Of a DNA stretch of 64,000 nucleotides, positions 1,764 to 45,599 are shown piece by piece. This DNA comes from Candidatus Aenigmatarchaeota archaeon (GTDB taxonomy: Archaea > Aenigmatarchaeota > Aenigmatarchaeia > CG10238-14 > WAMV01): positions 1 to 64,000 of the forward strand of contig WAMV01000007.1 of assembly GCA_015522145.1 (NCBI GenBank), written 5' to 3'. Both the position numbers and the translations under genes were made by a program. The stretch's first letter is position 1. Each line of letters starts with the position of its first letter. Under the pieces are notes generated by a model. It ran no database searches. It was not told the origin of the DNA and saw nothing but the letters and a program-made list of their open reading frames with translations.

Positions 1764-1907
1764 CGCCCGGGGTGGGATTTGAACCCACACGGGGCAGAGC
1801 CCCACCAGCTTTCTGTGGTACTCCTTCTCTTCATTGCTTGGGCTCTGAGAGGCGAGCTTCTTCATAAACTCCAGGCTGGCGCCTTTACCTGGTTCGGCCA
1901 CCCGGGC
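1764..1907 (-). tRNA. tRNA-Ser(GGA) with 58-nt intron at 37/38 (intron 1811-1868)
   Basis: Acceptor GCCCGGG/CCCGGGC, anticodon stem CCAGC/GCTGG, loop CT-GGA-G|A, long variable arm, T-loop TTCAAAT, G73; no encoded CCA. Confidence 0.95.
1811..1868 (-). ncRNA. Putative intron-encoded box C/D sRNA
   Basis: ATGAAGA(1865-1859), 11 nt, CAGA(1847-1844), 9 nt, ATGAAGA(1834-1828), 12 nt, CAGA(1815-1812). Confidence 0.7.
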
Positions 1908-14213: not shown

Positions 14214-15236
14214 TTATTTTTTATAACCTATTCCATTAACTTCCAACAAATTTCCGTCTAGTTTAATTTCTGCATTTGTAAGCATCTTAACTATTTTTAT
14301 GTTAGACTCAACATGATCCGTTATTTCATGTATTATAGCTTTAGATTTGCCTTCGGCTAAAGCAAAATAAGGTATTATCTGGTCTGCCATAAATTTGTCG
14401 AGAGTGGCTTTGGAATTAAGCACCTGAACAAAGTATTCTGCAGTTTCCTGGCCTATTTGGTACAATGTTTTATTTTTTTGCATGTAATTATCAGAGCCAA
14501 GTACTGTGTTTTCGAAGTTGGCATACAATAATAAAGATGAGCCTGGGGATAGAGTTTTGTAAGTTTTTTCTTCAACTTCTACACCTTCTATGCCATTATT
14601 GTTCAAGTAATCTAACACGCCTTTTGTTTGCTCTTTTAATTTGTTTATTGGCAAACTGCCTATGTTAGATATAAGCTTTATTTTTTCTAGTTTACCTCTT
14701 TCCAAAATTTCCAAATTTCTAAGTTTGTTTATAGGCTTAACAACAAGTCTTATTAGGCCACCTCCTCTTGGATAATAGCCTTGGTTAAAAACTTCTATAC
14801 TGGCTTTAACGTTCATAGCAGAAACTATTGGTAAAAAAACATGAGAAATGTACTCTATTGTTGGAGAGCCTAAACCAGCTGTACCCCCTCTTATCTCAAT
14901 CTCAACTTCTTCATTACCAAATATTAATAATGGCAACATTGTTTGCAGCAGCAATGGTATACTGCCAGCAGTACCTATATCTATTCTTTTACTTTCCACA
15001 GAAATTTCTCTCGGCTCAAACAAAACATCCATGGAACCAATTCTTAAACCAGAAACTTTTGCCTTTGTAAATTCAGCCATTACTTTTATGCCTGTAAAAT
15101 GTTGCGGCCTTAAGCCGGGGTTAGGCCTGTTCTTTCTTATGTTGTAAATCCTTATTTTTTTGCCTAGCAATGAAGCTAAAGCTATCGCTGTCCTTAAAAC
15201 TTGACCATAGCCAAATGATGCATCTATCTCTATCAT
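14214..15236 (-). CDS. rtcA: RNA 3'-terminal phosphate cyclase
   Basis: GQVLRTA, RPNPGLRPQH, GYYPRGGG, ADQII, TDHVESN. Confidence 0.93.
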   Translation of the reverse strand: MIEIDASFGYGQVLRTAIALASLLGKKIRIYNIRKNRPNPGLRPQHFTGIKVMAEFTKAKVSGLRIGSMDVLFEPREISVESKRIDIGTAGSIPLLLQTMLPLLIFGNEEVEIEIRGGTAGLGSPTIEYISHVFLPIVSAMNVKASIEVFNQGYYPRGGGLIRLVVKPINKLRNLEILERGKLEKIKLISNIGSLPINKLKEQTKGVLDYLNNNGIEGVEVEEKTYKTLSPGSSLLLYANFENTVLGSDNYMQKNKTLYQIGQETAEYFVQVLNSKATLDKFMADQIIPYFALAEGKSKAIIHEITDHVESNIKIVKMLTNAEIKLDGNLLEVNGIGYKK

Positions 15237-20295: not shown

Positions 20296-21582
20296 ATGTT
20301 TGATATTAATTTGATTCGAAAAAATCCAGAGTTGGTAAGGGAAAATTTAAAAAGAAGACAAGAACCAAAGTACCTAGAATTATTGGACAGAGCAATAGAG
20401 CTTGATAGAAAATGGAGGGAAATAAAAACAAAAGCAAATGAGCTAAGGGCAAAAAGAAACAAACTAAGTCAAGAAATAGCCAAGCTGAAAAAGCAAGGCA
20501 TGCCTACAGAAACTTTAATGGAAGAAGCTAGAAAGGTTGCTCAAGAAATAGAAAAGTTGGAAGATGAAGAAAGAAAGGTGGAGGAGGAATTAAAAACGGT
20601 GTTAATGAAAATCCCAAACATGCTTCACGAAAGTGTGCCTTATGGAAAAGATGAAAATGATAACGTGGTTGTAAAGGTTGTTGGCAAGCCACCAAAATTT
20701 AATTTTCAGCCAAAGAGTCACATAGAAATTTTAACCAACTTAGGATTACTTGATTTAGAAAGAGGTTCTAAAGTAGCTGGCAGCAGATTCTATTACCTTA
20801 AACATGAACTGGCTTTGCTGGATTTGGCCTTACAAAGATTTGCTATAGACGAGTTAAGAAAAAAAGGTTATATATTAGTTGAACCGCCATTCATGCTGAA
20901 TAAAAGAGCTTACATGGGGGCTGTCGATTTTGAGTTCTTCCAGGATCAAATCTACAAAATTGAAAATGAGGATCTCTACATGATAGCTACAGCAGAACAT
21001 CCTATAGCAGCCATGTTCATGGATGAGGTTTTAAACGCTGAAGATTTGCCATTAAAATTTGTTGGTGTAAGCCCATGTTTCAGAAAGGAAGTTGGAGCTC
21101 ATGGAAAGTATACCAAAGGCTTGTTTAGAGTACACCACTTCAACAAAATAGAACAATTTATATTCTGTAAACCTGAAGAAAGTTGGGACTTGCATGAAGA
21201 ACTGCAAAGGAATAGCGAAGAACTTTACAAAAAACTTGGCTTGCATTTCAGGGTAGTTAATGTTTGTACAGGTGATATTGGGGAGTTTGCTGCAAAGAAG
21301 TATGACATTGAAGTATGGATGGCAGATGGAAAGTATAGGGAAGCGGGCTCAAACTCAAACTGTACAGATTATCAAGCAAGAAGATTGAATATAAGATATA
21401 GAGAAAAGCCTGGTATGCCACCAAAAGGCTTTGTTCATACACTCAACAATACTGCACTGGCAACCAGCAGAACAATGATAGCTATAGTTGAGCAGTATCA
21501 GCAAGAGGACGGAACTGTTAAAATACCTAGAGTTCTATGGAAGTACATGAACGGTATCAAAAAACTAGAACCAAGAAAGTAA
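20296..21582 (+). CDS. serS: Serine-tRNA ligase
   Basis: N-terminal coiled coil, ATAE, CFRKE, FRVHHF, SNCTDYQARR, HTLN. Confidence 0.98.
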   Translation: MFDINLIRKNPELVRENLKRRQEPKYLELLDRAIELDRKWREIKTKANELRAKRNKLSQEIAKLKKQGMPTETLMEEARKVAQEIEKLEDEERKVEEELKTVLMKIPNMLHESVPYGKDENDNVVVKVVGKPPKFNFQPKSHIEILTNLGLLDLERGSKVAGSRFYYLKHELALLDLALQRFAIDELRKKGYILVEPPFMLNKRAYMGAVDFEFFQDQIYKIENEDLYMIATAEHPIAAMFMDEVLNAEDLPLKFVGVSPCFRKEVGAHGKYTKGLFRVHHFNKIEQFIFCKPEESWDLHEELQRNSEELYKKLGLHFRVVNVCTGDIGEFAAKKYDIEVWMADGKYREAGSNSNCTDYQARRLNIRYREKPGMPPKGFVHTLNNTALATSRTMIAIVEQYQQEDGTVKIPRVLWKYMNGIKKLEPRK

Positions 21583-25007: not shown

Positions 25008-25289
25008 TTACCATCTTGGTATTTTTTTCTTTATTCTATCTTCTGGTCTACCCACTAATAATTTACCATCTACCTTTACCTTTGTCCCGTCGGGCAAAGT
25101 AAAAATAAAGGTACAGAGCTTCTTGATTACTTTTTTTTCACCTTTTTTGGTTTCTATAGTCAATGTATTGTAAGTTTCGTCAACCACCTTTCCTCTTATT
25201 CCTTTATAAGAGGGGTTTACAGAATCTTTTACCTGAACCCTTAGGCCAATCAACTCATGCCTAACCAGATTTTTGGGAGTAATTGGCAT
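25008..25289 (-). CDS. rnp1: RNase P protein subunit Rpp29
   Basis: HELIGL, GKVVDET, LVGRPEDR; conserved position in the operon. Confidence 0.95.
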   Translation of the reverse strand: MPITPKNLVRHELIGLRVQVKDSVNPSYKGIRGKVVDETYNTLTIETKKGEKKVIKKLCTFIFTLPDGTKVKVDGKLLVGRPEDRIKKKIPRW

Positions 25290-44417: not shown

Positions 44418-45374
44418 ATGTGGTATATTAAGGCTAGAGAAGAAACTTTAGAAGAATTTGGAAAATCTCCTGAAGAAAGGAGTATAGGGGAGCTTATAGA
44501 ATCTGCTGTAGTTATTGTTGATAAGCATGCAGGCCCCACAAGCCACCAAATAACGCAATGGACAAAAGAAATTTTTAACGCTAAAAAAGCTGGTCATGCT
44601 GGAACGCTGGACCCACAGGTAACAGGAGTTTTGCCTGTAGCTTTAAATGATGCAACAAAAGCTATGATAGTTTTGATGGGTCTGGATAAAGAGTATGTTG
44701 GAGTAATGCATCTACATAAAGAAGTTAGCGAAGGTGTTTTAAGGCAAGCCATGCAGAAATTTGTTGGAGAAATAATTCAAGTACCTCCAAAAAGGTCTGC
44801 TGTAGCAAGAAGACCTAGGAGAAAAAGAGTTTATGTATTTGATATAGTAGAAATGGAAGGAAAAGATGTTTTATTTTATGTTAAATGTGAAGCAGGCGTA
44901 TATGTAAGGAAGTTAGTGCATGATTTGGGCCAAGCTCTAGGCATAGGTGCTCATATGACAGAGTTGAGAAGAACTAAAGCTGGTCATTTTGATGAAAAGC
45001 AAGCTAAGCCTTTAATCGAAATTAGAGATGCTTACGAAATTTGGAAAAGTGAAGGTGATGAAAGCATGTTAAAAGAAATTTTAATACCTATAGAGCATGC
45101 TATACCACATGTGAAAAAAGTGTTTGTTAAAGATACTGCTATAGCGCAAATATGTAATGGTGCCCCTGTTTACGCTAGTGGGCTCGTAAGAATACAAAAA
45201 GATATAAAGCCTGGTGAAATAGTCGGAATTTTTAGCTTAAAAAATGAATTGATTGCATTAGGCATAGCTAAAATGAGTGCAAAGGAAATGTACAATAAAA
45301 GTAGGGGAATTGCTGTAAGAACTGACAGGGTTATAATGAAAAAAGATGTTTACCCTGATTTCAGAAAAAAATAA
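44418..45374 (+). CDS. cbf5: H/ACA pseudouridine synthase Cbf5
   Basis: GPTSHQ, GHAGTLDP, ELRRT, C-terminal PUA domain. Confidence 0.96.
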   Translation: MWYIKAREETLEEFGKSPEERSIGELIESAVVIVDKHAGPTSHQITQWTKEIFNAKKAGHAGTLDPQVTGVLPVALNDATKAMIVLMGLDKEYVGVMHLHKEVSEGVLRQAMQKFVGEIIQVPPKRSAVARRPRRKRVYVFDIVEMEGKDVLFYVKCEAGVYVRKLVHDLGQALGIGAHMTELRRTKAGHFDEKQAKPLIEIRDAYEIWKSEGDESMLKEILIPIEHAIPHVKKVFVKDTAIAQICNGAPVYASGLVRIQKDIKPGEIVGIFSLKNELIALGIAKMSAKEMYNKSRGIAVRTDRVIMKKDVYPDFRKK

Positions 45375-45376
45375 AG

Positions 45377-45384
45377 TTTAAAAA
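45377..45384 (+). promoter_or_regulatory. TATA box for the leader-tRNA-Ser transcript
   Basis: TTTAAAAA after a purine-rich BRE-like stretch; spacing at the other tRNAs predicts a start near 45408. Confidence 0.55.
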
Positions 45385-45406
45385 ATCAACCAAAGCAAAT
45401 TAAAAT

Positions 45407-45451
45407 TAGTCTCAAGGTCTGATAGCAAGATGATGAGCACTGGCTTTGCAT
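45407..45451 (+). ncRNA. C'/D'-type guide element in the pre-tRNA-Ser(UGA) 5' leader
   Basis: Guide TAGTCTCAAGGT, CTGA, 7 nt, ATGATGA, guide GCACTGGCTTT; guides complementary to 45483-45494 and 45550-45560. Confidence 0.8.
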
Positions 45452-45599
45452 GCCCGGGTGGCGGAACCAGGCTAACGCGCCGGCCTTGAGACTACCATGA
45501 GAATGTTGGCTTGACCCTGAAAAACATGATGATAAGGAGGTGAGTCGAGAAAGCCGGTGCCCCTTACGGGGCGTGTGGGTTCAAATCCCACCCCGGGCG
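45452..45599 (+). tRNA. tRNA-Ser(TGA) with 61-nt intron at 37/38 (intron 45491-45551)
   Basis: GCCCGGG/CCCGGGC, CCGGC/GCCGG, loop CT-TGA-G|A, central BHB helix CTTG/CGAG with 3-nt AAA bulge, long variable arm, G73. Confidence 0.95.
45491..45551 (+). ncRNA. Putative intron-encoded box C/D sRNA
   Basis: ATGAGAA(45497), 13 nt, CTGA(45517), 5 nt, ATGATGA(45526), 14 nt, GAGA(45547). Confidence 0.72.

Follow-up and report, generated by a model that had tools for sequence, protein, structure and literature searches.

The tRNA-Ser(UGA) gene of a Candidatus Aenigmatarchaeota archaeon (assembly GCA_015522145.1) is probably a composite unit, one that would yield the tRNA, a 5' leader guide directed at the wobble base of that same tRNA, and an intronic box C/D small RNA (sRNA) of the sR13 type that guides to 16S ribosomal RNA (rRNA). 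The gene lies in a window of 64,000 nt (contig WAMV01000007.1, positions 1-64,000, forward strand), to which all coordinates without a contig label refer and which had earlier been described from its letters alone (hereafter the sequence-only reading). Motifs, conservation, covariation and complementarities were observed in this and related genomes, and from them we predict the transcription start, protein binding and methylation. Throughout, G000 denotes the genome under study, labels of the type C1 to C19 its contigs, other G numbers its relatives, and f1 to f5 families.

The G000 assembly comprises 323 kb in 19 contigs at 34% G+C, with completeness estimated at 81%, and it is the sole member of its family within the genome collection used; relatives of the same order have genomes of 0.4-1.2 Mb. 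ARAGORN missed both serine tRNAs of the window and mis-called several intron-bearing tRNAs, and Rfam/Infernal was used instead. This recovered four tRNAs in the window, two of them long serine tRNAs, and 28 tRNA genes in the genome (26 from the genome-wide search and 2 from other searches), 11 of which exceed 100 nt.

A predicted double-guide sRNA in the tRNA-Ser(UGA) intron

The tRNA-Ser(UGA) gene and the elements of its intron are as follows; "+5" is the nucleotide paired with the fifth base upstream of a D or D' box.

45452-45599, + strand: tRNA-Ser(UGA), Rfam tRNA 43.8 bits
45452-45490, + strand: exon 1 (Rfam tRNA), anticodon TGA at 45487-45489
45552-45599, + strand: exon 2 (Rfam tRNA)
45491-45551, + strand: intron, predicted full box C/D sRNA, 61 nt
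45491-45496, + strand: 5' flank, ACTACC
45497-45503, + strand: C box, variant ATGAGAA, pairing with the D box (covariation)
45504-45516, + strand: D' guide, TGTTGGCTTGACC, predicted to target 16S 1405-1414 with A1408 at +5
45517-45520, + strand: D' box, CTGA
45521-45525, + strand: loop, AAAAC
45526-45532, + strand: C' box, ATGATGA
45533-45544, + strand: D guide, TAAGGAGGTGAG, predicted to target the 16S 3' tail at 1532-1542 (anti-Shine-Dalgarno) with C1535 at +5
45545-45548, + strand: D box, TCGA, placed by comparison across homologues
45549-45551, + strand: 3' end, GAA

By its sequence, the intron is a complete double-guide box C/D sRNA. Its elements follow the archaeal box C/D order, with a spacing of C (7), 13, D' (4), 5, C' (7), 12 and D (4) nucleotides. 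The tRNA-Ser(UGA) genes were collected from 60 genomes of the order, and 14 intron carriers from families f1-f5 were aligned. The guide core GGAGGTG is invariant in all 14 homologues and the core TGGCTTGAC is identical in 13, with one change in G012 (TGGTTTGAC), while variation is seen in the flanks of the intron, in its loop and in the variable arm of the tRNA. Two bases 3' of GGAGGTG every homologue reads YYGA, which places the D box of G000 at TCGA. Positions 5 and 6 of the C box pair with positions 2 and 1 of the D box, the pattern of kink-turn stem II: the C6-D1 pair is Watson-Crick throughout (GC in 7 rows, AU in 6, CG in 1) and the C5-D2 pair is standard in 11 of the 14. The covariation score is 0.857 as against 0.388 when shuffled, was reached by none of 500 shuffles, and collapses when the partner is slid along. 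Position 4 of the C box is T rather than A in six f4 rows, weakening one G.A pair. Reading AAGGAGGTGA as the Shine-Dalgarno sequence of a small open reading frame (ORF) was considered and rejected, as no ORF lies downstream and its distance to the covarying D box is fixed.

Across the 323-kb genome, a loose C/D pattern returned four candidates compared with 0-2 in each of 10 shuffles, and three of the four are attached to tRNA genes. A strict canonical pattern found a single sRNA, on contig C5.

Predicted targets in 16S rRNA and comparison with sR13

Targets were sought in G048, a relative that has the same intron and complete rRNAs (rRNA positions are given in E. coli numbering). Its 16S rRNA contains a unique perfect match to each intron guide core: GTCAAGCCA corresponds to 1405-1413, within CACACCGCCCGUCAAGCCA, and TCACCTCC to 1532-1539, within GGAUCACCUCCUUA. 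The G000 guides themselves match G048 16S in exact runs of 10 nt (D' guide; reached by 38 of 2000 composition-preserving shuffles) and 11 nt (D guide; 5 of 2000). The longest exact run replaced a permissive guide-target score, and the significance is limited to contiguous pairing. Under the +5 rule the guides would address A1408 and C1535. The two targets lie ~125 nt apart and flank helix 45.

A known sRNA has the same pair of target regions. In Nanoarchaeum equitans, sR13 is complementary to 16S 1405-1415 and 1531-1540 (Seistrup et al., PMC5389701). It too is a double guide, with a D' arm to 1405-1415 (Am1408) and a D arm to the anti-Shine-Dalgarno tail at 1531-1540, that is, the same regions in the same order, and Am1408, Am1409 and Am1534 have been measured in that organism by mass spectrometry and RiboMeth-seq (PMC5389701). 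The two RNAs differ in that the D-arm target is A1534 in N. equitans and is predicted to be C1535, shifted by one base, for the Ser(UGA) intron, and in the variant C and D boxes of the latter (AUGAGAA and UCGA). The available text of PMC5389701 contains no statement placing sR13 in a tRNA intron, and an "sRNA13" of N. equitans is grouped with sRNAs having their own promoter (PMC3491384), where the numbering may not equal that of sR13. Likened by its target regions, the Ser(UGA) intron is, on our prediction, the functional counterpart of N. equitans sR13, here hosted in a tRNA intron.

The arrangement of the targets can also be read as structural. The intron RNA might serve chiefly as a folding chaperone or timer for the 16S 3' minor domain, keeping the 3' tail next to the beginning of helix 44, the two segments that flank helix 45, with methylation secondary; the same role has been proposed for sR13 in N. 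equitans, an organism without RsmA/Dim1 (PMC5389701). A full-length match to RsmA/Dim1 (PF00398) was likewise found in neither G000 nor 30 relatives, the best hit being 35 bits over profile positions 22-87 of 263. Methylation would still be compatible with such a role, however, and both N. equitans sites are methylated (PMC5389701). Many of the weak PF00398 hits are a ~250-amino-acid methyltransferase encoded close to nop5-fibrillarin in many relatives, and this protein could be a divergent Dim1. We regard a chiefly structural role as possible, if on the unlikely side. As a guide, the intron would tie tRNA maturation to assembly of the 30S subunit in a clade without a clear RsmA/Dim1, which parallels the bypass proposed for N. 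equitans.

A predicted wobble guide in the 5' leader

The sequence-only reading had placed a guide in the leader of tRNA-Ser(UGA), and it was found to be present and conserved in six relatives. Over 45410-45436 the leader reads t-CTCAAGG-t-CTGA-tagcaag-ATGATGA, divided as follows.

45411-45417, + strand: guide, CTCAAGG, exact complement of nt 31-37 (CCTTGAG) of the same tRNA
45418, + strand: spacer, T, one base before the D' box
45419-45422, + strand: D' box, CTGA (CTGA, TTGA or ATGA in relatives, at the same spacing)
45423-45429, + strand: loop, tagcaag, 7 nt
45430-45436, + strand: C' box, ATGATGA (ATGATGA, ATGAAGA, ATGAGGA or TGATGA in relatives)
45437-45447, + strand: second arm, GCACTGGCTTT, complementary to AAAGCCGGTGC at 45549-45559 (intron end and exon 2)

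In the guide duplex (-12.7 kcal/mol), U34 pairs with the fifth base upstream of the D' box, and the D' box, 7-nt loop and C' box together form a K-loop-type motif. Six relatives of families f2 and f3 (G060, G008, G012, G002, G048 and G011) have the module CTCAAGG-N-(C/T/A)TGA-loop-ATGAxGA ahead of tRNA-Ser(UGA), at a distance of 1-19 nt, and the same 6-7-mer guide module is intronic in six f5 genomes (G032, G026, G041, G035, G050 and G017). A module that holds its register on moving from leader to intron or back fits a guide, and splice-site structure does not readily account for it. We read the leader module as a guide for the wobble nucleotide U34, whose methylation is predicted by the +5 rule.

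The second arm of the leader forms a duplex of -18.4 kcal/mol with the intron end and exon 2. A covarying counterpart exists only in G008 (GCACCAGCTTTT versus AAAGCTGGTG) and is absent from the five other relatives; no D box follows the arm in G000, and it gave no significant match to one relative's rRNA (1701 of 2000 shuffles). It may at most be an accessory pairing.

The same module in other tRNAs

A search of G000 for the guide-N-YTGA-loop-C' pattern gave 90 sites, 11 of which have a guide complement within 150 nt, whereas 20 shuffles gave 0-4 such sites. Of the 11 guides, five address the anticodon loop of the tRNA next to them, from introns in Leu-CAA, Lys-UUU, Arg-UCU and Met-CAU and from the leader in Ser-UGA. 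In tRNA-Trp, the guide and a UUGA box occur without a downstream C' box. Nucleotide 34 falls at +5 in all six tRNAs, which have six different anticodons, and relatives add modules for Ser-CGA and Trp in the same register. The survey of introns and leaders proposed in the sequence-only reading thereby returned modules in six tRNAs of G000, six leaders of relatives and six introns of relatives. Each of the following has a 7-nt anticodon-loop complement, one base, then YTGA.

C19:4778-4890: tRNA-Met(CAU) with candidate intron guide
C8:5621-5737: tRNA-Arg(UCU) with candidate intron guide
C3:2984-3098: tRNA-Leu(CAA) with candidate intron guide
C11:6085-6196: tRNA-Trp(CCA) with candidate intron guide
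C5:22084-22221: tRNA-Lys(UUU) with candidate intron guide

Both tRNA-Trp and tRNA-Lys contain a second insertion, 5' of the anticodon stem, with a C-box-like CGATG(A/T)GAA. The intron of tRNA-Thr(UGU) (C11:3258-3384) carries a CTGA-loop-AGATGA module whose guide, CACGACGGTCAC, matches 23S rRNA of a relative exactly over 10 nt (36 of 2000 shuffles); an alternative pairing of 7 bp joins CACGACGGTCAC to its own intron/exon-2 junction and places C39 at +5.

The strict-pattern sRNA on C5 stands beside one of these genes.

C5:22076..22027, - strand: canonical box C/D sRNA, 8 nt downstream of the intron-bearing tRNA-Lys(UUU)

It runs GTGATGA, 13 nt, CTGA, TTA, ATGATGA, 12 nt, CTGA. Neither guide gave a significant match to one relative's rRNA (663 of 2000 and 1385 of 2000 shuffles). 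The D' guide has a 7-nt complement in common with the D arm of the adjacent tRNA.

Observations that weigh against the composite unit

Several observations count against the composite reading, to which a rival promoter and two proteins not found in the assembly, treated below, are to be added. The D' and C' boxes of the Ser(UGA) intron are consensus, whereas its C (AUGAGAA) and D (UCGA) boxes are variants of RUGAUGA and CUGA. Searches with the Rfam C/D families at permissive E-values gave nothing at threshold, with snoPyro_CD at 12.7 bits (cut-off 45) and sR17 at 12.1 bits (cut-off 36). The 14 aligned rows are related, 7 of them from one family, so that the covariation counts overstate independence. 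Under the permissive score, which admits scattered matches and counts G.U as 0.5, the D' guide did no better than shuffles (166 of 300). No 16S or 23S rRNA genes are assembled in the 81%-complete G000, and its guide targets were checkable only on relatives' rRNA. The leader module has neither an upstream C box nor a downstream D box, and is a single D'/C' half-guide; it was not found in eight f4 homologues and G044, which do carry the rRNA-guide intron.

Short and partly non-consensus boxes, matching no Rfam C/D family, are what chance resemblance in AT-rich DNA might produce. We give this explanation almost no weight in view of the conservation across five families, the covariation between boxes, the two significant rRNA matches and the presence of at least 12 modules in one register.

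Transcription start

AT-rich TATA-like boxes begin 31-33 nt before tRNA-Cys, tRNA-Leu and tRNA-Ser(GGA), as the sequence-only reading had seen at the other three tRNAs of the window. It had further described the box of tRNA-Ser(UGA) as displaced upstream. The promoter matrix used, derived from sequence upstream of 26 other tRNAs, is weak, and these regions are AT-rich. In the 45452 register the matrix scores -7.04, below all 26 others (minimum -4.28), and the best register implies a start at 45411. To this extent the displacement holds up, but a second TATA-like run at 45398-45408 had been overlooked. The elements upstream of the leader are as follows.

44418-45371, + strand: cbf5, H/ACA pseudouridine synthase (TruB_N, TruB_C_2, PUA and DKCLD domains), gene end at 45374
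45377-45385, + strand: TATA-like box, TTTAAAAAA, best register in 45300-45470 (score 4.77, implied start 45411), candidate promoter
45398-45408, + strand: second TATA-like run, AATTAAAATTA, score 4.38, implied start ~45435, rival promoter

We infer a leader-tRNA transcript that would begin near 45408-45411. The leader might instead fall outside any dedicated leader-tRNA transcript, either because the tRNA starts at ~45435 from the second run, or because the guide exists only as the tail of the cbf5 mRNA. The second run scores 4.38 against 4.77 in AT-rich surroundings, and its start would lie inside the leader C' box; cbf5 lies directly upstream of the leader on the same strand, ending 3 nt before TTTAAAAAA, and read-through from cbf5 into the leader is possible. 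In relatives, however, 1-19 nt separate the module from the tRNA, and in G012, G048 and G011 just one base, too little for a separate promoter between them. A start at 45435 would also leave the conserved module untranscribed from that promoter. We consider it unlikely that the leader lacks a dedicated transcript shared with the tRNA.

Processing and methylation machinery

Rpp29 and RtcA are encoded in the window, as had been claimed, RtcA being by family the cyclase and RtcB the ligase. The machinery for releasing guides from precursors is also encoded in G000, with RNase P RNA, Rpp29, EndA and RtcB all found.

25011-25289, - strand: Rpp29, RNase P protein subunit (PF01868, 4.4e-27)
14217-15236, - strand: RtcA, RNA 3'-phosphate cyclase (PF01137, 2.6e-72)
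C5:8179-9489: RtcB, ligase
C5:11855-12110: RNase P RNA, 120.9 bits
C9:713-991: L7Ae, 109.8 bits

The proteins of the C/D ribonucleoprotein (RNP), which the sequence-only reading had named as a check, were recovered in part. Of these, L7Ae was found, whereas Pfam profiles recovered neither fibrillarin nor Nop5 from the 81%-complete assembly, and tblastn with relatives' open frames gave nothing better. The sole Pfam fibrillarin hit (27.9 bits over 44 profile positions) is to a 204-amino-acid protein that, from its sequence pattern, we take to be of the isoaspartyl-methyltransferase type, and the Nop profile had no hit. Both proteins are present in all 30 relatives searched, adjacent on one contig in 29 and on different contigs in G011. 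Since they are adjacent in relatives, one assembly gap could hide both. At C8:917-1480, G000 has a homologue, 52% identical, of the gene between nop5 and fibrillarin in one relative; its neighbours are different, and we draw no inference from it about a hidden locus.

Taken at face value, the lack of these two proteins beside a retained L7Ae suggests that the motifs are L7Ae-binding kink-turns serving pre-tRNA folding or processing only, methylation having been lost along with fibrillarin and Nop5. The small genome (323 kb at 81% completeness, far below the 0.4-1.2 Mb of relatives) would suit such a loss. The guide cores are nonetheless intact and essentially identical to those of relatives with both proteins, whereas guides without a methylase should decay, and folding has no need of a +5 register fixed on nucleotide 34 in six tRNAs. 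We find a purely structural role quite unlikely, and the intact guide cores argue that fibrillarin and Nop5 are present in the organism. The sequence-only reading had seen a genome-compaction strategy in the release of guides from pre-tRNAs; the arrangement is not specific to G000, as the larger genomes of its relatives share it.

The tRNA-Ser(GGA) intron and the splice sites

The second serine tRNA of the window lies on the opposite strand.

1907..1764, - strand: tRNA-Ser(GGA), Rfam tRNA 45.9 bits
1868..1811, - strand: intron, predicted full box C/D sRNA, 58 nt
1865..1859, - strand: C box, ATGAAGA, after TTT
1858..1848, - strand: D' guide, AGCTCGCCTCT
1847..1844, - strand: D' box, CAGA, then GCCCAAGCA
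1834..1828, - strand: C' box, ATGAAGA
1827..1816, - strand: D guide, GAAGGAGTACCA
1815..1812, - strand: D box, CAGA, then a final A

Judged from its boxes and guides, this intron is a second full C/D sRNA, unrelated to the first. Homologous introns occur in three f3 genomes, where the guide cores GCGCCTCT and GAGTACC are conserved. The D guide matches 16S rRNA of a relative exactly over 9 nt (GGTACTCCT), a length reached by 76 of 2000 shuffles; the match presumably lies near helix 22, going by alignment to E. coli. The D' guide gave no significant match to one relative's rRNA (a 6-nt run, 1999 of 2000 shuffles).

Both serine tRNAs therefore appear as sRNA hosts, as the sequence-only reading had proposed from their C/D boxes: their guides have the canonical spacing of 11-13 nt and are conserved in relatives, and the introns are of similar length (61 and 58 nt), at the same canonical 37/38 site and with different guides. 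An AAGGAG described as following C' is indeed there in both (45534-45539 in Ser(UGA), 1826..1821 in Ser(GGA)). It was rejected as a common signal, since it belongs to two different guides and relatives of the Ser(GGA) intron keep only GAGTACC. A D-like box had also been seen over the splice-site helix; the overlap is real, but the box in Ser(UGA) is TCGA, and not the GAGA that had been read.

Both introns end GAA/A or AGAA/A (a slash marks the cut), and CGAG or CAG can pair with anticodon-loop nt 32-35 or 32-34. In Ser(UGA), nt 32-35 (CUUG) can pair with CGAG at 45546-45549, leaving AA/A and AG/A bulges; in the splice-site helix of Ser(GGA) only three of the four pairs form. The minimum-energy fold is a cloverleaf with an extended anticodon arm, not the textbook 3-4-3 motif. 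Because the CGA of the D box is used in the splice-site helix, the kink-turn fold of the RNP and the splicing fold would be mutually exclusive.

Proposed pathway

On the composite reading, transcription would start near 45408-45411 and give a leader of ~41-44 nt, whose K-loop-type motif would be bound by L7Ae. With Nop5 and fibrillarin, the leader guide would pair with nt 31-37 and position the ribose of wobble U34 for 2'-O-methylation. RNase P would cut between 45451 and 45452, freeing the leader, and the splicing endonuclease between 45490 and 45491 and between 45551 and 45552; RtcB would join the exons and may circularise the intron. As the D box is partly taken up by the splice-site helix, the intron RNP would assemble after excision. 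The excised 61-nt RNA would then direct its D' guide to the decoding site at 16S 1405-1414 (A1408) and its D guide to the 3' tail at 1532-1542 (C1535). A single tRNA gene would in this way provide two guides, one directed at its own wobble base and the other at the decoding site of the ribosome.

Relation to known guide RNAs

A close precedent is the intron of pre-tRNA-Trp, the guide for Cm34 and Um39, described in a 2014 review as "a unique example" (PMC4090602). Like the modules described here, that intron (Haloferax; Pyrococcus sR50) is a nested guide that addresses its own nucleotide 34 and is freed by the splicing endonuclease (PMC4090602, PMC7994747). The Ser(UGA) gene differs in having its self-directed guide in the 5' leader and not in the intron, in that this guide lacks a terminal C/D pair and consists of one D'/C' module, and in an intron aimed, by prediction, at rRNA; in f5 relatives, where the module is intronic, the likeness to pre-tRNA-Trp is restored. 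Four Pyrococcus sRNAs are directed at nucleotide 34, in Leu(CAA), Leu(UAA), Met and Trp (PMC7994747). Free-standing full-length sRNAs share the target position and the +5 rule with the modules of G000, whose guides are built into the precursor of the target itself.

Guides are also known to be made by tRNA enzymes from joint precursors. Some tRNAs are followed directly by a C/D sRNA (PMC7994747), and N. equitans has dicistronic tRNA-sRNA precursors together with a C/D sRNA in a tRNA-Met intron (PMC3491384). In dicistronic genes (N. equitans tRNA-Val-sRNA8, Ignicoccus hospitalis tRNA-Ser, Thermoproteus tenax tRNA-Pro; PMC3491384, PMC7994747), tRNA enzymes generate the guide ends, as proposed here. 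In those genes, however, the sRNA is downstream and is freed by RNase Z, whereas the Ser(UGA) guide is upstream and its release by RNase P is predicted. The downstream form exists in G000 itself, in the C5 sRNA 8 nt past tRNA-Lys. A full-text literature search, with subscription journals mostly outside it, turned up neither a guide described in the 5' leader of a pre-tRNA nor an sR13-type rRNA guide in a tRNA-Ser intron.

A wider proposition follows, which we hold tentatively and would sooner expect to fail than to hold. All guide RNAs of the lineage may be borne by tRNA precursors, in the 5' leader, the intron or the 3' trailer, with RNase P, the splicing endonuclease and RNase Z constituting their whole biogenesis, and a single K-loop with a 7-nt guide may suffice for methylation in cis of the wobble ribose in at least six tRNAs. 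If true, this would amount to a box C/D RNP reduced to a minimum that has not been described among natural guides. Box C/D guides within tRNA introns have so far been taken for a curiosity almost unique to tRNA-Trp. Families differ in whether the wobble guide is a leader or an intron element, which offers a natural test of action in cis before RNase P or splicing, and the locus likewise tests whether one K-loop is sufficient for an active methylation RNP. It would also show how tiny genomes can express small RNAs without dedicated promoters.

Other features of the window and genome

The gene for seryl-tRNA synthetase (20296-21579, + strand) shares the window with both tRNA-Ser genes and their introns. 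At C13:77-179 and C7:79568-79670, the latter past the end of the window, lie two tRNA-Ile(UAU) genes that are near-identical and intron-bearing. Their 76-nt upstream sequences are identical, their introns differ by one base, and one copy stands at a contig start; the pair may be a repeat or an assembly overlap. The tRNA-Ile(UAU) intron is a plain hairpin without box motifs. Judged from their translations, read by eye, two adjacent genes at C11:5448-8579 may encode a ribose-1,5-bisphosphate isomerase-like protein and a form III RuBisCO-like protein, the latter represented by its start.

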